This document shows, one piece after another, positions 1-39,710 of a stretch of 39,710 nucleotides of DNA; the first letter of the stretch is position 1, and every line of letters starts with the position of its first letter. Position numbers and translations under genes: made by a program. Source of the stretch: a virus (lineage: Duplodnaviria > Heunggongvirae > Uroviricota > Caudoviricetes); IMG/VR virus record IMGVR_UViG_2778261152_000009, positions 1-39,710 of that record; one strand, written 5' to 3'. Below the pieces are notes generated by a model. The model was not told the origin of the DNA and did not search any database. It was given only the letters and a program-made list of their open reading frames with translations.

Positions 1-1161
1 TTACCTAACATTTAAGTAAACCACGTTCTCTTCTTGTGCCGTATTTGTGCCATTGCGACTTATAATCGCATCGATTTTGCTCGCGTGCTCGGTGAGATGC
101 CCGGCTGAAAGGTGGGCGTATCTTTGAACCATTTCGAGAGTTTCCCATCCTCCCATCTCTTTAAGTGCAAGAAGAGAGACACCGGACTGAACCAGCCAGC
201 TTGCCCAGGTATGCCTCAGGTCATGGAAGCGGAAGTTGCTAATGCCTGCCCGCTTTAACGCTCCCTTCCATGCCTTGTTGCTGTCGGTTCTCATCTTCCT
301 TACCGCTGCTGTTTTTGTTCCGTCGCTTCGGTAGGCAGGTTTGGTGTGGACAAATACCCATCTCTTATGGAGCCCCTGCTGTTTTCTTAATATCTGGCAT
401 GCGGTTTCGTTAAGAGGAACTCCGATCGCATTGCCAGCTTTTGTTTCATCAGGGTGCATCCATGCCATTTTCTTATCCAGATCGACCTGTGACCACTCAA
501 GGTCTGTAACGTTGGAACGGCGAAGGCCTGTCGTGATTGCAAACATGACCACAGGGAAGAAATGAGGAGCAATTTCTGCAAACAGGCGCTTCGATTCCTC
601 CTCTGTAAGCCATCTGATTCGTCCATTCTTAACGCGTGGTGTTGATATTTTGGGCGCCCTGTCAAGCCATCCCCATTCAACAGCCATATTGAGAATAGCG
701 CGAAGTATTGCCAGATGCCGCGTCTTCGTTCCTTTGCTTGCCAGCTTTGGTTTATACTCCGGCACCGGATTGCCAAGTCGTAAACACCTGTCCCGGCTCA
801 TCTCCCAGTTCAGGCGATGGCGGCGGTTTTCCATCCCGTCTACCGCCTCCATTATTTTTTCTGTTGTTATGTCAGAGAGAATGGCTTCTCTGAAGTGCAA
901 CATCCAGAACGATATAATGCTCTTGTCATCATCAATGGACTTCTTATCCGATTTCTCACGCAGCCACCGTATGCAGGCTTCCTTGAATAGCTTTTTCGGT
1001 GATTCCCCGAGATTTTTTACTCTCCACGCTTCTGCTTTCAGACGATCGTGAAGTTCTTGCGCTTGCCTTTTGTCCGATGTTTCAAGAGAGCGTCTAACTC
1101 TTGATCCATCTGGCGCGACGAAATCGCAGTGCCACGTGCCACCGCGTAGTTTGATTGACAT
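1..1161 (-). CDS. int: Tyrosine-recombinase integrase (P22 Int-like)
   Basis: 386-aa ORF; C-terminal catalytic region FHDLRHTWASWLVQSGV...MVQRYAHL matches the R-H-R-Y tyrosine recombinase signature; N-terminus resembles P22-type integrases from memory; lies at the prophage edge next to an excisionase. Confidence 0.9.
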   Translation of the reverse strand: MSIKLRGGTWHCDFVAPDGSRVRRSLETSDKRQAQELHDRLKAEAWRVKNLGESPKKLFKEACIRWLREKSDKKSIDDDKSIISFWMLHFREAILSDITTEKIMEAVDGMENRRHRLNWEMSRDRCLRLGNPVPEYKPKLASKGTKTRHLAILRAILNMAVEWGWLDRAPKISTPRVKNGRIRWLTEEESKRLFAEIAPHFFPVVMFAITTGLRRSNVTDLEWSQVDLDKKMAWMHPDETKAGNAIGVPLNETACQILRKQQGLHKRWVFVHTKPAYRSDGTKTAAVRKMRTDSNKAWKGALKRAGISNFRFHDLRHTWASWLVQSGVSLLALKEMGGWETLEMVQRYAHLSAGHLTEHASKIDAIISRNGTNTAQEENVVYLNVR

Positions 1162-1385
1162 GCTTTAACCTCCTGCACATCAACCGCATTCACCGCGCTA
1201 TTGTGTCTCACAGACTTAAGCGCCGCAATGCAGTCTGACTTGCAAATGCGATATGGGCTTTTAGGTTTATCTGGATTTATCTTTGCGGCCTGAAGTCGTC
1301 CACTTCGTATCCACTGCGTGATAGTGCCTTTGTCTACCTTCAGATACGACGCTGCCTCTTCACGAGTGAAGATTTCTTCTTCCAC
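1038..1385 (-). CDS. xis: Excisionase-family DNA-binding protein
   Basis: 115-aa ORF immediately upstream of int and overlapping its 5' end by 124 nt; N-terminal helix-turn-helix-like segment TREEAASYLKVDKGTITQWIRSGRL typical of the excisionase family. Confidence 0.65.
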   Translation of the reverse strand: MEEEIFTREEAASYLKVDKGTITQWIRSGRLQAAKINPDKPKSPYRICKSDCIAALKSVRHNSAVNAVDVQEVKACQSNYAVARGTAISSRQMDQELDALLKHRTKGKRKNFTIV

Positions 1386-1494
1386 CTGGAATCTCCATTT
1401 ATTGGATTGGTATTATTGCGGTAGGTCTGGATATCATTGAGCAATGAACAGGCCTCATCGAGTGTGAGGCGGTGTGATTTCTTTATTTCCACTC

Positions 1495-1710
1495 TTAATG
1501 CTTGTCAGTGAATGGTTTCTCCATCTCCATTAATGCCTTATTCATATCATTTTGTAACTCTATAGCCATCCTGACGGCTTCAACTTGTGCAGGATGTCGG
1601 TTAATTGCTGGAGAATATCGTCGGGAGCTAAGGATTGAGAAAACAAAGATAATGCAAGCAACTATCTGAATTGCATTGCATATTATTGATACAATGTGAA
1701 TTGCAGCCAT
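1495..1710 (-). CDS. Hypothetical small hydrophobic protein
   Basis: 71-aa ORF with a hydrophobic N-terminal half; starts directly downstream of a minus-strand terminator, so its expression signal is unclear. Confidence 0.3.
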   Translation of the reverse strand: MAAIHIVSIICNAIQIVACIIFVFSILSSRRYSPAINRHPAQVEAVRMAIELQNDMNKALMEMEKPFTDKH

Positions 1711-1720
1711 CTACTACCCC

Positions 1721-1745
1721 AAATAAAAAACCGCCATCAGGCGGC
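1721..1745 (-). terminator. Rho-independent terminator (minus strand)
   Basis: Minus strand reads GCCGCCTGATGGCGG followed by TTTTTTATTT: GC-rich hairpin plus T-run; the stop codon of the IS2-interrupted ORF lies in the hairpin. Confidence 0.6.
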
Positions 1746-1867
1746 TTGGTGTTCTTTCAGTTCTTCAATTCGAATATTGGTTACGTCTGCATGTGCTATC
1801 TGCGCCCATATCATCCAGTGGTCGTAGCAGTCGTTGATGTTCTCCGCTTCGATAACTCTGTTGAATG

Positions 1868-1872
1868 GTTCT
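1868..1872. repeat. IS2 target-site duplication, left copy (GTTCT)
   Basis: GTTCT immediately flanks the IS2 end at 1873 and is repeated at 3204-3208. Confidence 0.85.
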
Positions 1873-1883
1873 TGGATTTGCCC

Positions 1884-2789
1884 CTATATTTCCAGACACC
1901 TGTTATCACTTAACCCATTACTGGCTTGCTGCCGTAGATATTCCCGTGGCGAGCGATAACCCAGTGCACTATGCGGATGCCATTCGTTATAATGCTCGAA
2001 CGCCTCTGCAAGGTTCTTTGCTGCCGTTAACCCGTCTGGTTTGGGCATGACACTGATGTAGTCACGCTTTATCGTTTTCACGAAGCTCTCTGCTATGCCG
2101 TTACTCTCCGGACTCCGCACCGCCGTGCTCTTCGGTTCAAGCCCCAACATCCGGGCAAACTGCCGTGTTTCATTAGCCCGGTAGCATGAACCATTATCCG
2201 TCAGCCACTCTACTGGAGACGCCGGAAGCTCGTTGCCGAAGCGGCGTTCCACCGCTCCCAGCATGACGTCCTGTACTGTTTCACTGTTGAAGCCGCCCGT
2301 AGTGACCGCCCAGTGCAGTGCCTCACGGTCACAGCAGTCCAGCGCGAACGTGACTCGCAGTTTTTCTCCGTTATCACAGCGGAACTCGAACCCGTCAGAG
2401 CACCATCGCTGATTACTTTCTTTCACAGCCACTCTGCCTGTATGTGCCCGTTTCGATGGCGGTACAGCAGGTTTTCGCTCAAGCAACAGCGCATTCTGGC
2501 GCATGATCCGGTAAACACGTTTGGCATTGATCGCAGGCATACCATCAAGTTCTGCCTGTCTGCGAAGCAGCGCCCATACCCGACGATAACCATACGTGGG
2601 CAGCTCTCCGATAACATGGTGTATACGGAGAAGCACATCCGTATCATCAGTGTGACGACTGCGGCGGCCATCCATCCAGTCATCGGTTCGTCTGAGAATG
2701 ACGTGCAACTGCGCACGCGACACCCGGAGACAACGGCTGACTAAGCTTACTCCCCATCCCCGGGCAATAAGGGCGCGTGCGCTATCCAC
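1884..2789 (-). CDS. insD: IS2 transposase OrfB (InsD, DDE catalytic domain)
   Basis: 301-aa ORF recognised as IS2 InsD ([34 protein letters not shown]...); overlaps the upstream orfA in the -1 frame as in IS3-family frameshift-dependent transposases. Confidence 0.9.
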
Positions 2790-3112
2790 TTTTTTGCCCG
2801 TCCATATTCAACGGCTTCTTTGAGGAGTTCATTTTCCATCGTTTTCTTGCCGAGCAGGCGCTGGAGTTCTTTAATCTGCTTCATGGCGGCAGCAAGTTCA
2901 GAGGCAGGAACAACCTGTTCTCCGGCGGCGACAGCAGTAAGACTTCCTTCCTGGTATTGCTTACGCCAGAGAAATAACTGGCTGGCTGCTACACCATGTT
3001 GCCGGGCAACGAGGGAGACCGTCATCCCCGGTTCAAAGCTCTGCTGAACAATTGCGATCTTTTCCTGTGTGGTACGCCGTCTGCGTTTCTCCGGCCCTAA
3101 GACATCAATCAT
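2747..3112 (-). CDS. insC: IS2 transposase OrfA (InsC, HTH DNA-binding)
   Basis: ORF track gives 2747..3157; the recognised InsC begins at the internal Met [40 protein letters not shown] (121 aa, start 3112). Confidence 0.85.
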
Positions 3113-3203
3113 CTGTTCTCCAATGACTAGTCTAAAAACTAGTATTAAGACTATCACTTAAATAAGTGATATTGGTTGTCTGGAGATTCAGGGGGCCAGT
3201 CTA

Positions 3204-3208
3204 GTTCT
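3204..3208. repeat. IS2 target-site duplication, right copy (GTTCT)
   Basis: Direct repeat of 1868-1872 immediately after the IS2 end. Confidence 0.85.
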
Positions 3209-3328
3209 CCATTCCATTCACCTGTGACTCGGAAGTGCATTTATCATCTCCATAAAACAAAACTCGCCGTAGCGAGTTCAGATAAAAGAAATCCCCGCGA
3301 GTGCGAGGATTGTTATGTAATATTGGGT

Positions 3329-3610
3329 TTAATCATCTATATGTTTTGTACAGAGAGGGCAAGTATCGTTTCCACCGTACTCGTGATAATAATTTTGCAC
3401 GGTATCAGTCATTTCTCGCACATTGCAGAATGGGGATTTGTCTTCAGTAGACTTATAAACCTTCATGGAATATTTGTATGCCGACTCTATATCTATACCT
3501 TCATCTACATAAACACCTTCGTGATGTCTGCATGGAGACAAGACACCGGATCTGCACAACATTGATAACGCCCAATCTTTTTGCTCAGACTCTAACTCAT
3601 TGATACGCAT
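3329..3610 (-). CDS. Hypothetical Cys/His-rich small protein
   Basis: 93-aa ORF with Cys/His spacing C-x6-C-x2-HH ... C-x13-CPLC suggestive of metal binding; first gene of a leftward cluster of unknowns; no family recognised. Confidence 0.45.
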   Translation of the reverse strand: MRINELESEQKDWALSMLCRSGVLSPCRHHEGVYVDEGIDIESAYKYSMKVYKSTEDKSPFCNVREMTDTVQNYYHEYGGNDTCPLCTKHIDD

Positions 3611-3801
3611 TTATAAACTCCTTGCAATGTATGTCGTTTCAGCTAAACGGTATCAGCAATGTTTATGTAAAGAAACAGTAAGATAATACTCAACCCGATG
3701 TTTGAGTACGGTCATCATCTAACACTACAGACTCTGGCATCGCTGTGAAGACGACGCGAAATTCAGCATTTTCACAAGCGTTATCTTTTACAAAACCGAT
3801 C

Positions 3802-4536
3802 TCACTCTCCTTTGATGCGAATGTCAGCGTCAGACATCATATGCAGATACTCAACTGCATCCTGAACCCATTGACCGCCAATCCCGTAATAGCGATGCGT
3901 AATGATGTCGATAGTTACTAACGGGTCTTGTTCGATTAACTTCCGCAGAAACTCTTCCAGGTCACCAGTGCAGTGCTTGATGACAGGAGTTTTCCCAGGA
4001 TGGCGAACAACAAGAAACTGATTTCCGACTTCACGGACTTCGTTGCTTTCCAGTTCTGCAATGCGCTTCTCTGCGGATTCCAACGCCGCAACCAATTCGT
4101 CTACAGTTCCGGCAGCTTGCAGTGCGTAATCGGTAATAGCCATCTCATGATCAATTTCAGTACCGTTCTCATTCGTTGAGGTGATAGCAAAATAATCAGA
4201 GTCGATTTCGTTATCAGCTAAGTGGCGTAGCGTATCGGCAACAAGCCGGCCGTTTTCGATTAGCAGCTTCCCTACCGTTAGCGCAATATCCTCGTTCTCC
4301 TGGTCGCGGCGTTTGATGTATTGCTGGTTCCTTTCCCGTTCATCCAGCAGCGCCAGCACGGTTTCTGGTCCGGTCAGAAATTTGAAGGCGTTGAGCGCAT
4401 CAATATCCACACCGTAATCTTTAAGTTCCTGTTCACTTAACAAATCATCATCAGCTGGCAACATTAACAGGCGTTCCATTGCCGGAATTGCACGTTCTGC
4501 CGCCTCACGCAGTGCCTGATAGTTAATGTTGGTCAT
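3802..4536 (-). CDS. Hypothetical acidic protein, possibly Ead/Ea22-like
   Basis: 244-aa acidic ORF with predicted coiled-coil character (repeated AELES-type segments); position between int/xis and the recombination genes matches lambda 'ea' genes; family assignment is from memory only. Confidence 0.45.
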   Translation of the reverse strand: MTNINYQALREAAERAIPAMERLLMLPADDDLLSEQELKDYGVDIDALNAFKFLTGPETVLALLDERERNQQYIKRRDQENEDIALTVGKLLIENGRLVADTLRHLADNEIDSDYFAITSTNENGTEIDHEMAITDYALQAAGTVDELVAALESAEKRIAELESNEVREVGNQFLVVRHPGKTPVIKHCTGDLEEFLRKLIEQDPLVTIDIITHRYYGIGGQWVQDAVEYLHMMSDADIRIKGE

Positions 4537-9622: not shown

Positions 9623-9895
9623 TTACCTCGCTGTCAGTTGTTTTGATTTCCGGTAGCCTGCCGCGTAAATGGCTACGTTTGGCAGGCAAATACTTCCACT
9701 GCATTCATCTACCTTCTTGCAGCGAAGGCTTCCGAGTGATGCTGCTTTATCTGCCCTGACGCAACCAGAGAGCTTTAGCGCAATTTTTCGTGCCAATCGC
9801 TGTTCTTGCATTGCCTGTTCACGTTGAGCCTGTCTGCGTGCTCTGCGGCGATTTCTGGCGTTATCGTCAGCCAGATATGTAATGACTACTGTCAT
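9623..9895 (-). CDS. N-like transcription antiterminator (P22 gp24-like)
   Basis: 90-aa ORF with an N-terminal arginine-rich motif NARNRRRARRQAQREQ and C-terminal ...AIYAAGYRKSKQLTAR resembling P22 gp24 from memory; first gene downstream of the pL/nutL region. Confidence 0.7.
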   Translation of the reverse strand: MTVVITYLADDNARNRRRARRQAQREQAMQEQRLARKIALKLSGCVRADKAASLGSLRCKKVDECSGSICLPNVAIYAAGYRKSKQLTAR

Positions 9896-10262: not shown

Positions 10263-10652
10263 TTAGTCAGCGAAGGTTAAGACGAGAATTACCTTAATGA
10301 TGTCTGCTACAACAGACACGGCCATAGATAAACCAAAGACGATCCAAGCCACAGTGATGTCTTCACTACCATCGTATAGAGTTCCGTAATCACTGGTGTA
10401 AGGCGTAAATGTCGCGCCTTGATACAATAGGTATAAGCTTGATCCATAGAGGATAAATGCAGATATCCCTTGTATTGCTATGATCACAAGAATCATGAAA
10501 CGAGCTGATCTATGCGCCCAAGCCTGGCTTATTTTTTCTGATAGAGATTTCGCAATAAAAGCATGCGCTAAGCCGTAAATTGTCGAGATTGCCAACATCC
10601 CAAAAAAGCTTGCTATAGCGGTTCCAACCATAATCGCCCCTTGCGTGATCAA
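10263..10652 (-). CDS. Small integral membrane protein coupled to cI (rex-position gene)
   Basis: 129-aa ORF with about three hydrophobic helices; ORF-track start is a TTG overlapping the cI stop by 4 nt, alternative ATG at 10631 with AAGGGG upstream; lies between cI and OL where lambda carries rexAB. Confidence 0.6.
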   Translation of the reverse strand: MITQGAIMVGTAIASFFGMLAISTIYGLAHAFIAKSLSEKISQAWAHRSARFMILVIIAIQGISAFILYGSSLYLLYQGATFTPYTSDYGTLYDGSEDITVAWIVFGLSMAVSVVADIIKVILVLTFAD

Positions 10653-11365
10653 ACCAGCCTTAGTTTTGTCTCAATTGCAACGCCTATAATCTTGCAGTTT
10701 CCATTGATTGGCACGAGAGGCCATGCAGGATTAAGTCCCTTGAGGTATTTATTTCCGCCGTCGATTATCAGCTTCTTGAATGTTGCTTCGTTAGAGTCAG
10801 AAAGTTTTGCTATGACCAAGCTGCCGTTGATCGCCTCTCTTCCGGTATCGAAAAGAACGAATGTTCCCTCTGGAATGCTTAACCCAACCGGTGCCGTCAT
10901 TGAATCACCTTCCACTTTAAGCCAAAACGCATTACCTTGAATATGCGCGTCAGACTCAAGCCAAACATCTATGTCTTTAATGGTGTATGGTTCGCATGCT
11001 TCACACCACGAGCCAGCCTGGATACTGCTTAACACCGGATACCTCTTTCCTGCTCTGTATTCCCCTGCATACCTTACGTTGGCATCGCTCTTAAGGCTTT
11101 CTGCCTGTTCTGCAACCTTGGCAGCAATTGACTGGCTAAAATCAGCAATTGAGACTTGCAACAATCGTGCAAAACCAGATGCAACCTCAACGTTTAGCGC
11201 GTTTCTGCCATTAAGATAATGCCCTACCGCTCCTTGGGTGATACCCAGTTCATCAGCGATTGAGTATTGGGTTATTCCCAATTCTTTCTTTTTTGACTCA
11301 TACAAAGCCTTAAGCCGCTTAGCGTCTTCGAGCTGTTCTGTCGTCAGTGATTTTTTATTTTCCAT
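10649..11365 (-). CDS. cI: CI-type prophage repressor (HTH + S24 LexA-like autopeptidase domain)
   Basis: 238 aa; N-terminus LTTEQLEDAKRLKALYESKKKELGITQYSIADELGITQGAVGHYLNG parallels lambda CI; C-terminal FWLKVEGDSMTAPVG...FKKLI carries the S24 Ser/Lys region; divergent from cro across an operator region; no obvious SD upstream (possibly leaderless as for lambda PRM). Confidence 0.9.
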   Translation of the reverse strand: MENKKSLTTEQLEDAKRLKALYESKKKELGITQYSIADELGITQGAVGHYLNGRNALNVEVASGFARLLQVSIADFSQSIAAKVAEQAESLKSDANVRYAGEYRAGKRYPVLSSIQAGSWCEACEPYTIKDIDVWLESDAHIQGNAFWLKVEGDSMTAPVGLSIPEGTFVLFDTGREAINGSLVIAKLSDSNEATFKKLIIDGGNKYLKGLNPAWPLVPINGNCKIIGVAIETKLRLV

Positions 11366-11774: not shown

Positions 11775-12053
11775 ATGCAACTTACAAGTACTCGCAAGAA
11801 AGCGAATGCAATCACAAGCAACATCCTAAATCGAATTGCTGTACGTGGTCAGCGAAAGGTTGCTGATGCATTAGGGATTAATGAATCGCAAATTTCGCGA
11901 TGGAAAGACAGCTTTATCCCAAAGATGGCCATGCTTCTGGCTGTGCTGGAGTGGGGTGTTGAAGACGAGGAATTAGCAGAGCTGGCAAAGAAAGTAGCCA
12001 TGGTGCTGACAAAAGAAAAGCCTCAAGACTGCTGCAACAGTTTTGAGGCCTGA
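11775..12053 (+). CDS. cII: CII-like transcriptional activator
   Basis: ORF track starts at 11688; the internal Met at 11775 (AAGGA upstream) gives a 92-aa product whose core GINESQISRWKDSFIPKMAMLLAVLEWGVEDEE parallels lambda CII (VDKSQISRWKRDWIPKFSMLLAVLEWGV). Confidence 0.8.
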   Translation: MQLTSTRKKANAITSNILNRIAVRGQRKVADALGINESQISRWKDSFIPKMAMLLAVLEWGVEDEELAELAKKVAMVLTKEKPQDCCNSFEA

Positions 12054-18941: not shown

Positions 18942-19016
18942 GGGTCAGTCGTATAAAGGTCATTACGGAAGGCTGTTAACCTTCTTATCGTGGTTCGAGT
19001 CCACGCTGTCCCGCCA
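18942..19016 (+). tRNA. tRNA-like gene, anticodon GUU (Asn-like), imperfect cloverleaf
   Basis: Manual fold: perfect T-arm CGTGG-TTCGAGT-CCACG, perfect anticodon arm GAAGG-CTGTTAA-CCTTC with U33/A37, D-loop with GG, encoded CCA; acceptor and D stems each have one U-U mismatch. Confidence 0.4.
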
Positions 19017-19021
19017 AATAT

Positions 19022-19097
19022 GTTGGTTTAGCTCCAATGGTAGAGCAGTCGCCTTGTAAGCGAATGGGTAGCGGTTCAAGTCCGTTAACCAGCACCA
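19022..19097 (+). tRNA. tRNA, anticodon UGU (Thr)
   Basis: Manual fold: acceptor GTTGGTT/AACCAGC (one G-U), U8, D-arm GCTC-CAATGGTA-GAGC, anticodon loop CTTGTAA, T-arm AGCGG-TTCAAGT-CCGTT, discriminator A, encoded CCA; 5 nt after the first tRNA-like gene. Confidence 0.5.
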
Positions 19098-28781: not shown

Positions 28782-30200
28782 ATGCCGATTCAGCAACTTC
28801 CGCTTATGAAAGGTGTCGGCAAAGACTTTCGAAACGCCGACTATATCGACTATCTGCCAGTGAATATGCTGGCTACACCCAAAGAAATCCTCAACAGCAG
28901 CGGATATCTTCGCTCATTCCCGGGCATTGCCAAACGTTCTGATGTGAACGGTGTATCTCGAGGCGTCGAGTACAACATGGCGCAGAATGCTGTCTATCGT
29001 GTGTGTGGCGGCAAGCTCTACAAAGGCGAAAGCGAGGTCGGTGATGTTGCCGGAAGTGGTCGCGTATCAATGGCGCATGGTCGAACATCTCAGGCGGTAG
29101 GCGTTAATGGTCAACTGATCGAGTATCGCTATGATGGCACGGTTAAAACAGTCTCAAACTGGCCTACAGACAGCGGATTCACTCAGTATGAGTTAGGTTC
29201 GGTTCGCGACATTACGCGTTTACGTGGGCGTTATGCGTGGTCAAAAGACGGTACTGATTCATGGTTTATCACTGACCTTGAAGACGAATCGCACCCTGAC
29301 CGATACAGCGCACAATATCGCGCAGAATCGCAGCCGGACGGTATCATCGGCATCGGAACATGGCGAGACTTCATCGTCTGCTTTGGCTCATCGACGATTG
29401 AATATTTTTCCCTGACTGGGGCAACCACCGTTGGTGCCGCTTTGTATGTTGCACAGCCATCGCTGATGGTGCAGAAAGGCATTGCCGGGACTTACTGCAA
29501 AACGCCGTTTGCTGATTCGTATGCGTTCATCAGCAATCCGGCAACAGGTGCGCCGTCTGTATACATCATCGGATCCGGTCAGGTGTCACCAATCGCCAGC
29601 GCGAGCATTGAGAAAATACTACGCTCCTACACTGCTGATGAACTGGCTGATGGCGTGATGGAATCGCTGCGGTTTGATGCGCATGAGTTGCTGATTATCC
29701 ACCTTCCGCGCCATGTTCTCGTGTACGACGCATCTTCAAGCGCCAATGGTCCGCAATGGTGTGTGCTGAAAACAGGCCTGTATGACGATGTGTACCGCGC
29801 TATCGACTTCATTTACGAAGGCAATCAGATAACGTGCGGCGATAAGCTGGAGTCCGTGACCGGGAAATTGCAGTTCGATATCAGCAGCCAGTATGGGCTT
29901 CAACAGGAACACCTGCTGTTTACTCCACTGTTCAAAGCGGATAACGCCAGATGCTTCGATCTGGAGGTGGAATCATCCACTGGCGTAGCTCAGTACGCCG
30001 ACCGCCTGTTCCTCTCTGCAACCACTGACGGCATAAATTACGGACGTGAGCAGATGATTGAACAGAATGAACCGTTCGTTTACGACAAACGTGTTTTGTG
30101 GAAGCGAGTCGGGCGCATCAGGAAAAATGTCGGCTTCAAATTGCGCGTTATCACGAAGTCACCTGTAACTCTTTCTGGCGCTCAGATAAGGATTGAGTAA
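28782..30200 (+). CDS. Head-completion / tail-hub protein (P22 gp10-like)
   Basis: 472 aa, the same length I recall for P22 gp10, in the syntenic position. Confidence 0.65.
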
Positions 30201-35853: not shown

Positions 35854-35974
35854 CCTTGATGCCTCACCAGGTGGGTGGAATGGCATCGTAACTTACTGGA
35901 TAAATACTCAATAGTACCATTTCGGTATGCAATCACATCATGGTTGCATCATATCATTCGTCTGGAGCAATGAA

Positions 35975-38155
35975 ATGTCAGATATCACCGCAAATATTGT
36001 GGTAAGCATGCCTTCGCAACTCTTCACTATGGCTCGTTCTTTTAAAGCCGTAGCCAATGGCAAAATTTATATCGGTAAAATTGACACTGACCCGGTAAAT
36101 CCTGAAAACCAGATTCAGGTTTATGTGGAGAACGAAGACGGTTCTCACATTCCTGTTGCACAGCCAATCATCATTAACGTTGCCGGATATCCTGTATATA
36201 ACGGACAGATTGCCAAATTCGTTACCGTGCAAGGTCATTCGATGGCTGTTTATGATGCATATGGCACGCAGCAGTTCTATTTCCCTAATGTGCTGAAGTA
36301 TGACCCTGACCAGTTAAGACAGAATCTGCTTGATCGTCCTCTTACTATCAGGAATGGTAAGCTTGCGCTAGCTGATTTCATTAATGTCCGTGATTATGGG
36401 ATTATGGGTGACGGCACTGACGAGAGTTCCTTATGGGCAGCAATGATTGCTGCGCTTCCTTCCGGTTGCACAACACTATATGTTCCTGCTGGTAATTATG
36501 TATGCAATACTCCTATCGCCCTGGTGTGGGCAAAACTACCCACGTTAATTGTTGACTCTGAGGCAATATTAACACCAGCCATATCCTTTTCTGCATTTTT
36601 AAACGTTCAGTACCGCCGAAGAGACGAAACTAAATTCGGTGCGGGAATTGTTTCTGCGGGAACAACTGCGAATATGGGTGGCTTTAAAGTTGGTGGAGGC
36701 GCTCTTATGGATTCTGGTGATGGAATGTTCTTATCATCAGATGGGCACGCTAACTGGATGCGCATTCAAACTAGCAAAAATTATAACCCATCAGAAGTTG
36801 CTATTTATGGCTCTGCGGCACAAGGTCAACTTGTACATCAGTCACAGAACGTACTGATACGTGAAAGTGGCTCGCTTTTCGACATTACTAATTGGGCAGT
36901 AGGTGATGCAATTTATGCTTTTGACAGGGCCCTGGTAATTACTGCATTAACCTCAGCAGACCAGATTTCTGTTACAGAAATTGGAGGGGGAAACCTTACT
37001 GCTGCCATAGGTGCTCATTCTAGATACCATTACGTATATACCACAGGTGGGGGTATATGCGACGTGGTAAATGGGGTATGTACAAGAAAATCAGGAGATC
37101 CATTCTTTTTCTTCGGATATGGAAATGGTACGTATAAATTCTGGCTTAACGGAACACTTCGTACCGTCGTCAGTATATCTAATAAAGGCAATACGTGCAC
37201 TTTGCAGGATACCTCTATAAATGCCACAAACGCGCAATACAAAATGAGGGATGATATTAACTCACAAATAAGTACATTGCGTGTGCAGAAAACTACAGGC
37301 GTGGATGAGGAGAATTTAACTATCTCTGCTAAAGCAGTTGGTGAATACGAAATAAGGGCAGGAATTTCCGGGGATGGTAAATATTATCCTATCCGTTTTT
37401 ATAACGGTGACGATGGTGCCTATAAACCGCATAAAGTAATGGAGATTACACCAAGCGGCCTTGTTGGGATTATGAATGATGGGTCATCTCCATCTGCACT
37501 TTTATATGCTAGTAATAAAACCAATGCACCAATGTCAGATGGCACAATGTTTAAGCTAGGTTCTTTCAGGACGCAATACACAGACGGTGCTAGAGAGCTA
37601 CAGTTTGGATGTTTGAGCAACTCTGGCTCTAACGGCGGCTTTATTCAGGGGAGTGATGCATCCGGCAATAACTACCAAGTAGTTATTAATCCTCGCGGTG
37701 GTAACGTTGGTGTTAATACAGATAATCCAGTATTTCCCCTAGACATTAATGGCGCTTGCGGGCCTCACATAAGCAACACATATACCAACGGTGACTCAAC
37801 TCGTTTATGGAAACTTGTGTATTCCGCAGGTGGGGTTTTAACAACATCTGATGAACGCAAGAAAACCAAGCTTAAGAAATTTACAGAGAATGAAATCGCT
37901 GCTGCACAAGAGCTTGCACTATGCTCTGGTACATTCATGTGGCTTAAAGATTGTGAGGAAATGGGCGATGACTCACCTATTAATATCGGGTACATAGTTC
38001 AAGATGTAATAAAAGTAATGGAAAAACATGGGCTTAATTACAGAAAATACAAAATGATAGACCATGATGAAGTGAATGATGCATACGCACTTAATTATGA
38101 CCAGATAATCGTTTTTGTTATGGCTGGTATTGTTGCTAGATTAGCATCAGGCTAA
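35975..38155 (+). CDS. Tailspike: P22-like head-binding N-terminus, distinct receptor-binding body, C-terminal chaperone-like domain
   Basis: ORF 35927..38155; Met at 35975 gives [58 protein letters not shown]... paralleling the P22 tailspike N-terminus; body unrelated to P22 as recalled; C-terminus has [11 protein letters not shown] resembling the S-D-x-R-x-K autoproteolysis motif of intramolecular chaperone domains. Confidence 0.8.
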
Positions 38156-38193
38156 ATTTCTGTTCATAATAAAAAGTTTGGTTGATTTTGTAA

Positions 38194-38227
38194 GGCAAGA
38201 GGTAGAAACCACCTCTTGCCATTTATT
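38194..38227. terminator. Bidirectional terminator between convergent tailspike and membrane-protein genes
   Basis: Perfect 10-bp stem GGCAAGAGGT / ACCTCTTGCC with 7-nt loop, followed by ATTTATT on the plus strand and preceded by an A/T-rich run on the minus strand. Confidence 0.6.
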
Positions 38228-39710
38228 AATCTCCTAGCTTAATGAAATAAATTCCATTCATAACTGTTATTGAGTCCGCGTCAGGCCATGACGGAATGAG
38301 TTTTAATTTTTCTTTTTCGTCGTTACTTGCAATGTGTAAATTTAAAGAAAACCCACTTATCATTGCTGCATATTTTGTAATTCTACGAGGATCTCCTCCT
38401 GAAAAACTAAACATTGACTCACCAAAGGTGTCAGAATTATTTTTTTTCCAAGGGTTGTATGTGGGATACGCACCGATGAAACTTACGACATCCGTTGACG
38501 GATTAAAGTTACCATACTTACTTTGTAGTTGGGACAATATCCTGTTAGTTATGTTGGAATCTATCTCTCTTGCCATTGCATCAGAGTAAAAGAGCATATT
38601 TACTGTTGATGCACTATAGTAAACTACAATTGTGCAAATTAGGGCTGACAGTGTGCTTTTTACTTTGCTGCATGTTTTTAATTTTTCTATAGCGAAAGCA
38701 AATAGAAAAGCGAATGTTGCAGATAACCCAAGCAAAACTCTGGGTCCCTGTATGCCCCCGAGTCCGATAACCACAAAGAAGGGGCTGATTGCTAATGTTA
38801 ATATTGATATTAATTTTATAATATTTTTATCATGATTGATTACCTGACTATAGGAAAGAAAAACAACGGGAACCACCATGAACGGAATAATGCTAGCCCC
38901 AAAATAATAATCACCTGTGAGTGTTGATATCACAACCTCACTCACCCTTTGAAGCGTTTCGTATACAGGTTCTTTTAGCCAGTGAAAGGTGTCTTTAAGA
39001 TATGTGGGTGTGGTTACGTTGAATATAGCATGACTTAAAAAAACTATTATATAATAAATGGATGTAGCAAGTATTATTGCAAACGAAAATATTGAAAAAC
39101 ATTTAATGATTCTCTTTTTGCATTCTTCATTACATTTTGCAATGAATTGCATTAAAAATACAACGACAGGGAAAGAGATTAGTGATTGATATATTCCTAG
39201 TGAAAAGGTAAGCACTAAAACCCCAATAAATAGAAGTTTTATATTTACTTTGTCTTTTCCAAAGATTGAAGAATAAAGTATCAGACCTGATATACATGCG
39301 AGAAGTTGACCTAATGCAACGGTATCGGACTGCTGAGCAAACTCAGCTTGATAAGCAAATTGCGGAAATGATACAAAAATAATAGCAAACATTATCCTTG
39401 TACTAAGGAGCTTAAACGTGTTTACAGCTAATAAGAAAGCAGTTATAACATTAAGCGCTAACATTACGAGAGTTGTAAACCCCGGCGTGTAGGCGTTTAC
39501 CCTAAATATATAGTCGATTATTGCTGAACCCCACCGCCCTAGAGAAATCCACCATAAAATACCTTCATTAGGCCATGAAAAAAAAGCGTACTCTGTGTCT
39601 ATTGATATAGAAAAGTTGGTTAGGTTTTGAAAATAAACGAGTAAAGACGTTATAAATGCTATAACCATTATCTTAATGCTATTGGCGTTTATTTCTTTTT
39701 TTAAATTCAT
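38226..39710 (-). CDS. Polytopic membrane protein, candidate O-antigen-modifying GtrC-like (serotype conversion)
   Basis: 494 aa with many hydrophobic helices over ~380 residues then a hydrophilic C-terminal domain; markedly AT-rich compared with the rest of the window; convergent with the tailspike at the prophage edge; start codon is at the last bases of the window, so any upstream partners are not visible. Confidence 0.45.
   Translation of the reverse strand: MNLKKEINANSIKIMVIAFITSLLVYFQNLTNFSISIDTEYAFFSWPNEGILWWISLGRWGSAIIDYIFRVNAYTPGFTTLVMLALNVITAFLLAVNTFKLLSTRIMFAIIFVSFPQFAYQAEFAQQSDTVALGQLLACISGLILYSSIFGKDKVNIKLLFIGVLVLTFSLGIYQSLISFPVVVFLMQFIAKCNEECKKRIIKCFSIFSFAIILATSIYYIIVFLSHAIFNVTTPTYLKDTFHWLKEPVYETLQRVSEVVISTLTGDYYFGASIIPFMVVPVVFLSYSQVINHDKNIIKLISILTLAISPFFVVIGLGGIQGPRVLLGLSATFAFLFAFAIEKLKTCSKVKSTLSALICTIVVYYSASTVNMLFYSDAMAREIDSNITNRILSQLQSKYGNFNPSTDVVSFIGAYPTYNPWKKNNSDTFGESMFSFSGGDPRRITKYAAMISGFSLNLHIASNDEKEKLKLIPSWPDADSITVMNGIYFIKLGD

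Follow-up and report, generated by a model that had tools for sequence, protein, structure and literature searches.

An IS2 insertion disrupts the homologue of lambda orf55 in a P22-like prophage integrated at thrW

An insertion sequence lies between ea8.5 and the excisionase gene in the window, by which we mean the whole 39,710-nucleotide stretch of DNA analysed here. Its presence raises the questions of which gene it interrupts, how recently it arrived, and whether it alters transcription into xis and int. We show here that the element is an IS2, that it inserted precisely and recently, and that the gene it disrupts is a homologue of lambda orf55. Its effect on xis and int is probably little, a lack of strong polarity that we infer from the sequence, and the insertion is likely neutral. 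We give this reading as a whole a probability of about 0.9. Element and gene are both already known, and the event is an ordinary IS-mediated disruption of a prophage gene with little significance beyond annotation.

Judged from its sequence, the window is a P22-like lambdoid prophage integrated at thrW. It encodes a P22-type portal and a tailspike with a P22 head-binding domain, and its closest phage relatives are 720R6, CUS-3, Kapi1, and Sf101. The integrase ORF occupies 1-1161 on the minus strand, position 1 being the last base of its stop codon, and the start codon of a GtrII-type glucosyltransferase gene forms the far end of the window. Read leftward, a cI-like repressor gene (10649-11365) is followed by an N-like gene (9623-9895), the recombination and exo-xis genes, ea8.5, and orf55::IS2, and then by a hairpin, a 71-aa ORF, the excisionase gene, and the integrase gene. 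The genes on either side of orf55::IS2 are:

3329-3610: Ea8.5, 93 aa (Pfam Lambda_ea8_5, E = 4.8e-48)
1495-1710, minus strand: 71-aa ORF (phrog_15342), its N-terminal half strongly hydrophobic
1038-1385: excisionase (phrog_2907)

Adjacent genes for tRNA-Asn(GTT) and tRNA-Thr(TGT) lie in the late-regulatory region (18942-19097); these two tRNAs were the only Rfam matches, with none in the insertion region.

The inserted element is an intact IS2 of 1331 bp (IS3 family), with the following parts:

1873-3203, minus strand: complete IS2, running from IRL (3203) to IRR (1873)
3162-3203, minus strand: IRL, 42 bp; TAGACTGGCCCCCTGAATCTCCAGACAACC... matches the IRL of K-12 IS2A, with the weak transposase promoter inside
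2747-3112, minus strand: orfA (insC), 121 aa, intact; NCBIfam NF006928 and Pfam HTH_Tnp_1
1884-2789, minus strand: orfB (insD), 301 aa, intact; NCBIfam NF006918 and Pfam rve, rve_3, and HTH_21
1873-1913, minus strand: IRR, 41 bp, with an outward-facing -35 element, TGGAAA, at 1894-1889

Alignment of 1873-3203 with IS2A of K-12 MG1655 (NC_000913.3 381260-382590) gave 98.0% identity, with 27 mismatches over 1331 bp, no indels, and the same termini. The ends read TGGATTTGCCCC... at 1873 (IRR) and TAGACTGGCCCCC... inward from 3203 (IRL); in the orientation of the element, the 1331 bp run from IRL TAGACTGG... to IRR ...CAAATCCA. A preliminary description of this locus had placed the IS2 ends at 1873 and 3203, and the IS2A alignment bears this out. 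The two NCBIfam IS2 models agree on the identity of the element: orfA scored 276.4 bits against NF006928 'IS2 repressor TnpA' (cut-off 229) and orfB 713.1 bits against NF006918 'IS2 transposase TnpB' (cut-off 597). An A6G -1 frameshift motif at 2795-2789 links the overlapping orfA and orfB. IS2A shares with the window copy its length, termini, insC/insD layout, and A6G -1 frameshift, and is likewise flanked by a 5-bp target duplication, its own being ATTAC/ATTAC. Of the 27 substitutions that separate the copies, two affect IS positions 42-43 and lie on the inner boundary of the 42-bp IRL or immediately past it; the imperfect inverted repeats of IS2 are described as 41/42 bp (PMC3299598).

The window copy is, by sequence comparison, an isoform present at 100% identity in other E. 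coli genomes. Identical copies occur in many of them, annotated as IS3-family transposase, and the sequence was matched in 4,899 of 5,426 complete E. coli genomes, at a median of 4 places per genome; in phage records the same sequence carries the label IS2. All sequence requirements for transposition (minicircle formation, Pjunc) are intact, and the copy is active-looking. Its insC and insD genes run on the minus strand, as do orf55, xis, and int.

The insertion is precise, as judged from its junctions and from the corresponding empty site. Both ends of the element abut a copy of the same pentanucleotide:

1868-1872: target-site duplication GTTCT, IRR side, exact repeat
3204-3208: target-site duplication GTTCT, IRL side, exact repeat

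On the plus strand, the left junction (1868-1873) reads ...GTTGAATG-GTTCT/TGGATTTGCCCCTATATTTCC... and the right junction (3203-3208) ...GGGGGCCAGTCTA/GTTCT-CCATTCC.... The repeat is exact at 5 bp and the sixth base differs, the chance of a 5-bp match being 1/1024; the perfect GTTCT repeat noted previously is confirmed as the duplication expected of IS2. A reconstructed empty site with 400 bp on each side was found at 100% identity over 800 bp in E. coli 19451123 and in ES9. In 19451123, whose prophage adjoins tRNA-Thr (thrW) and proA, the uninterrupted ORF carries an annotation as an intact CDS of 168 nt. The window aligns to this prophage in two blocks (1-1872 at 99.95% and 3204-4368 at 99.1%), which overlap by exactly 5 bases, the duplicated target. 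Given that the flanks are nearly identical to the empty prophage, the insertion must be younger than that very small divergence. The intact duplication and IS reading frames agree with this, and the earlier proposal of a recent insertion holds.

Once 1873-3208, the element plus one copy of the repeat, is removed, the minus strand again has an ORF of 168 nt (55 codons), with its ATG at 3240-3238 and its TGA at 1739-1737. A GGAG ribosome-binding site (3251-3248) precedes the ATG by 7 nt, and every coordinate in the preliminary description proved correct. The product, MHFRVTGEWNGEPFNRVIEAENINDCYDHWMIWAQIAHADVTNIRIEELKEHQAA, matches phrog_676 over residues 1-55 of 55 (E = 6.6e-40) and has no Pfam or NCBIfam family match. 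It has 99 homologues at 65-98% identity, and most of the named ones are from Escherichia, with one entry each for E. albertii, Klebsiella, and an Stx phage, indicating a narrow family. On sequence and position, the restored ORF is a homologue of lambda orf55 (lambdap35, NP_597778.1; phrog_676), the last exo-xis gene. The DNA from the terminator rightwards is 98.9% identical to lambda 29103-29651 (549 bp), and lambdap35 occupies lambda 29118-29285 on the complementary strand, encoding 55 aa between xis and ea8.5. The window gene likewise lies on the pL strand, with ea8.5 on one side and the excisionase gene on the other, and it shares with lambdap35 its 55 codons and a stop within a hairpin. 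Unlike its lambda counterpart, the window gene is interrupted by IS2 and accompanies an int/xis module that is P22-like and located at thrW.

The name orf55 is that of the literature, where the gene is described as uncharacterised (PMC8614690), and it was left out of a CRISPRi screen for essential lambda genes (PMC10695390). AlphaFold2 modelling of a 95%-identical family member with 20 homologues predicted a beta-beta-alpha-beta arrangement at a pLDDT of 91.6; by this model, Orf55 is a real protein fold. A kinship with T7 Gp2-like RNA polymerase inhibitors has been proposed for Orf55 (PMC8614690). The predicted fold is a generic one, and the similarity to Gp2 may not be specific.

IS2 enters the gene after codon 12, which the model places in the turn between beta1 and beta2, and leaves two fragments:

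3204-3251, minus strand: orf55 5' fragment, with GGAG at 3251-3248, ATG at 3240-3238, and 12 native codons
1737-1872, minus strand: orf55 3' fragment, codons 13-55 plus TGA at 1739-1737, with no start codon of its own

The frame of the 5' fragment continues into IRL and encodes a 28-aa chimeric peptide. With 12 codons left on the ribosome-binding site and 43 lacking a start, the gene is inactivated, as had been proposed. The fragments at 1737-1872 and 3204-3240 are best annotated together, as a single IS2-interrupted orf55 pseudogene. As a separate observation, insD and the 3' fragment share a frame, a 1-in-3 coincidence; the gap between them consists of the insD TAG and four codons (..RCLEI*GQIQEPFNRV.., 1873-1899 on the minus strand), and readthrough of the insD TAG would append residues 13-55 of Orf55 to the transposase.

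We favour a simple course of events. An active-looking IS2 transposed into codon 13 of orf55 in a P22-like, thrW-integrated lambdoid prophage, producing the usual 5-bp duplication. The gene was thereby knocked out, with the chimeric peptide encoded on the ribosome-binding-site side and the remaining 43 codons left without a start. Genes xis and int would be reached from pL only by N-antiterminated transcription, which is expected to cross IS2 as well. Since orf55 belongs to the non-essential, accessory genes of the exo-xis group, the insertion is most likely neutral or nearly so. The window holds a P22-like prophage that appears complete except for its naturally knocked-out orf55, and the IS-free prophage of 19451123 offers a counterpart for comparison.

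Transcription towards xis and int meets hairpins on both sides of orf55:

3260-3311, minus strand: two further terminator-like hairpins (3311-3290 and 3279-3260), upstream of the insertion in the spacer that separates ea8.5 from orf55
1718-1747, minus strand: intrinsic-terminator-like hairpin with a T-rich tail, 8-bp stem, orf55 stop in the loop

The downstream hairpin (1747-1728, minus strand) has an 8-bp stem with 5 G-C pairs, a 4-nt UGAU loop, and the tail TTTATTT. Its centroid fold is -13 kcal/mol, with a z-score of only -1.48 for the 54-nt stretch. The preliminary description had put the orf55 TGA inside a terminator hairpin; the stop does lie in the UGAU loop, and the hairpin is terminator-like by sequence. 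Positions 1000-4000 contain 8 terminator-like sites, compared with 2.2 +/- 1.6 in shuffled sequences. The hairpins flanking orf55, two upstream and one downstream, are native and common to lambda. We did not assign the name lambda tL3 to the downstream hairpin, as tL3 presumably lies just downstream of exo and not at this hairpin.

Similarity to lambda begins at about window position 1722 (query position 250), within the tail of the terminator, so that the hairpin is also a mosaic joint. On its right the DNA is 98.9% lambda-like, and on its left lies a P22/Sf101-like int-xis module, with the 71-aa ORF, which separates orf55 from the excisionase gene, beginning 7-8 nt past the T-run of the terminator. 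Other genomes have the same unit of orf55 and hairpin followed by lambda xis or by torI. In E. coli SY038 (L015 1088-1888), the spacer that in the window holds only two hairpins contains an additional hypothetical gene of 266 aa, indicating that the spacer between orf55 and ea8.5 acquires genes.

It had been suggested that the insertion probably inactivates transcription into xis and int, and of the alternatives to our reading, a polar block of this kind survives best. IS2 would end leftward transcription from pL, xis and int would stay silent on induction, and the prophage would be locked in the chromosome. This scenario would gain from the lack of an independent xis/int promoter downstream of the IS: no sigma-70-like promoter was recognised on the minus strand of 1000-4000, and xis and int may therefore depend fully on transcription that crosses the 1.3-kb IS2. 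A lambda-type, cII-dependent pI near xis was also considered and rejected, as no TTGC-N6-TTGC motif lies near xis/int, the sole well-placed copy being a pRE-like site at 11808-11821. Against a block, the three native terminator-like hairpins on the path mean that only antiterminated transcription would reach xis and int even without IS2, and the window encodes an N-like antiterminator at 9623-9895 (phrog_271, E = 2.4e-34). N-modified RNA polymerase overrides both Rho-dependent and intrinsic terminators, IS polarity included. Incoming transcripts would moreover be sense to insC and insD and translatable, which should disfavour Rho action, and the scan found no intrinsic-terminator-like site on the minus strand of 1873-3203. 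The classical 'orientation II' of IS2 (non-polar, sometimes activating), which we take to be the arrangement seen here, offers a further lead. In a galEP3 reporter, the polarity of IS2 was due to Rho-dependent terminators (PMC3737525). We consider a block unlikely, and the earlier suggestion is unsupported in view of the native hairpins and the N-like antiterminator. A partial polar effect on xis and int may nevertheless exist, with nothing in the sequence pointing to polarity.

Further IS2 insertions near this site in other prophages raise the possibility that the locus attracts the element or that its disruption is selected. The search of the junction region joins only same-strand pieces, and a query with the IS flipped served as control. 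Full-length IS2 was found near the site in seven copies, each with its own 5-bp duplication, including:

MB53: TCTGT, lambda 29238-42, inside orf55, orientation as in the window
DLI.6n: CTGAT, lambda 29215-19, inside orf55, orientation as in the window
USMARC-51688: GATTT, lambda 29480-84, in ea8.5, orientation as in the window
FDAARGOS_1249: CAACC, lambda 29736-40, intergenic, orientation as in the window
RL465 and PI12: nearby, orientation as in the window

These copies differ from that of the window in target and isoform (96.5-99.7% identity), and none of the insertions shares the window junction. The single orientation returned by the first search is an ascertainment artefact of joining same-strand pieces: the flipped query found at least as many insertions in the opposite orientation (among them loci L012-L014 and the APEC O78 lineage, HCP6S3_I2, and GPEC1405), and we rejected an orientation bias. 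Two prophages with the same thrW-type integrase module carry other IS insertions nearby. In E. coli LR-28 (L005 1505-2835), the integrase gene is split by ISEc36, an element with 81% identity to IS2, and in ETEC1703 (H76) an IS2 of opposite orientation lies within ~600 bp of the site.

The number of insertions provides little reason to invoke a hot spot. IS2 occupies 24,455 places in 28.0 Gb (8.7e-7 per bp), and 4,065 places hold the region. From this density, 0.6 insertions would be expected in orf55 (168 bp), where 2 were observed, and ~10 in the ~3 kb region, where ~20 were seen, many of them clonal. These counts are of the same order as the genome-wide density predicts, and a regional hot spot is not demonstrable. 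On a finer scale, three independent IS2 copies (that of the window plus L002 1638-2968 and L007 1615-2945, the copies inside orf55 of MB53 and DLI.6n) lie within 38 bp of orf55 (lambda 29215-29252), in one orientation, with the duplications CTGAT/TCTGT/GTTCT and as different isoforms. Taking the window insertion as seed, ~0.3 further insertions would be expected within +/-40 bp and 2 were observed, a nominal P of ~0.03 for an interval chosen post hoc, calculated from the genome-wide density and uncorrected for the greater tolerance of insertions by accessory prophage DNA. IS2 is reported to insert non-randomly. The 5'-proximal half of orf55 could be a preferred micro-target, or loss of Orf55 could be selected in lysogens; we find either quite improbable, and the clustering is a mild curiosity that is not statistically robust.

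The reverse of a polar block, an activating insertion, would have the outward -35 element of IRR, or read-out from the transposase promoter, drive the 71-aa ORF, xis, and int constitutively. IRR does face the downstream genes, and its outward -35 can form fusion promoters (PMC9330008, PMC3299598), ampC being an example (Jaurin and Normark 1983, as cited in PMC9330008). The ampC arrangement resembles the window in having this -35 directed towards downstream genes. It differs in that the window lacks a usable -10 at the spacing needed, and a terminator-like hairpin (1747-1728) separates the IS from the genes in question. Pjunc geometry requires an obligatory 17-bp spacer (PMC3299598), and from TGGAAA (1894-1889) this spacing leads to GAACCA, which matches TATAAT at 1/6 positions; spacers of 16 bp and 18 bp give 1/6 and 3/6. 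The absence of any minus-strand promoter-like site in 1000-4000 also speaks against activation, and the opposite-orientation insertions, at least as frequent nearby in other prophages, give no sign of selection for orientation. We rejected an IS2-derived fusion promoter towards xis/int on the lack of a -10 at the required spacing, and regard activation in general as very improbable. On the plus strand, a promoter-like TTGAAT-18-TATATT (9/12) at 1861-1890 spans the junction of flank and IRR and points into IS2, antisense to insD. Since 1000-4000 holds 2 promoter-like sites where 4.8 are expected, it is probably a chance match.

The exact junction was absent from 5,426 complete E. coli genomes and from phage records, and its 38-nt sequence was not found in species-representative genomes or metagenome contigs. 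The insertion should thus be a useful strain or lineage marker. A repeat-induced misjoin that placed IS2 here during assembly is the least probable alternative of all: the junctions are known from assembled sequence alone and have no match in any other public record searched, and a multicopy IS2 is a classic source of misassembly, but neither a perfect 5-bp target duplication on both sides of a full-length element nor its exact placement in an otherwise 99.1-99.95% identical prophage would result from a misjoin. The disruption of orf55 by a genuine transposition event remains our preferred reading.

At the other end of the window (35927-39710), the tailspike combines its P22 head-binding domain with a C-terminal Peptidase_S74 chaperone domain, and the GtrII-type glucosyltransferase gene (38226-39710) lies on the opposite strand; gtrA and gtrB would fall beyond the window. 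Together, the tailspike and the GtrII-type gene suggest an O-antigen-modifying (serotype-converting) prophage.
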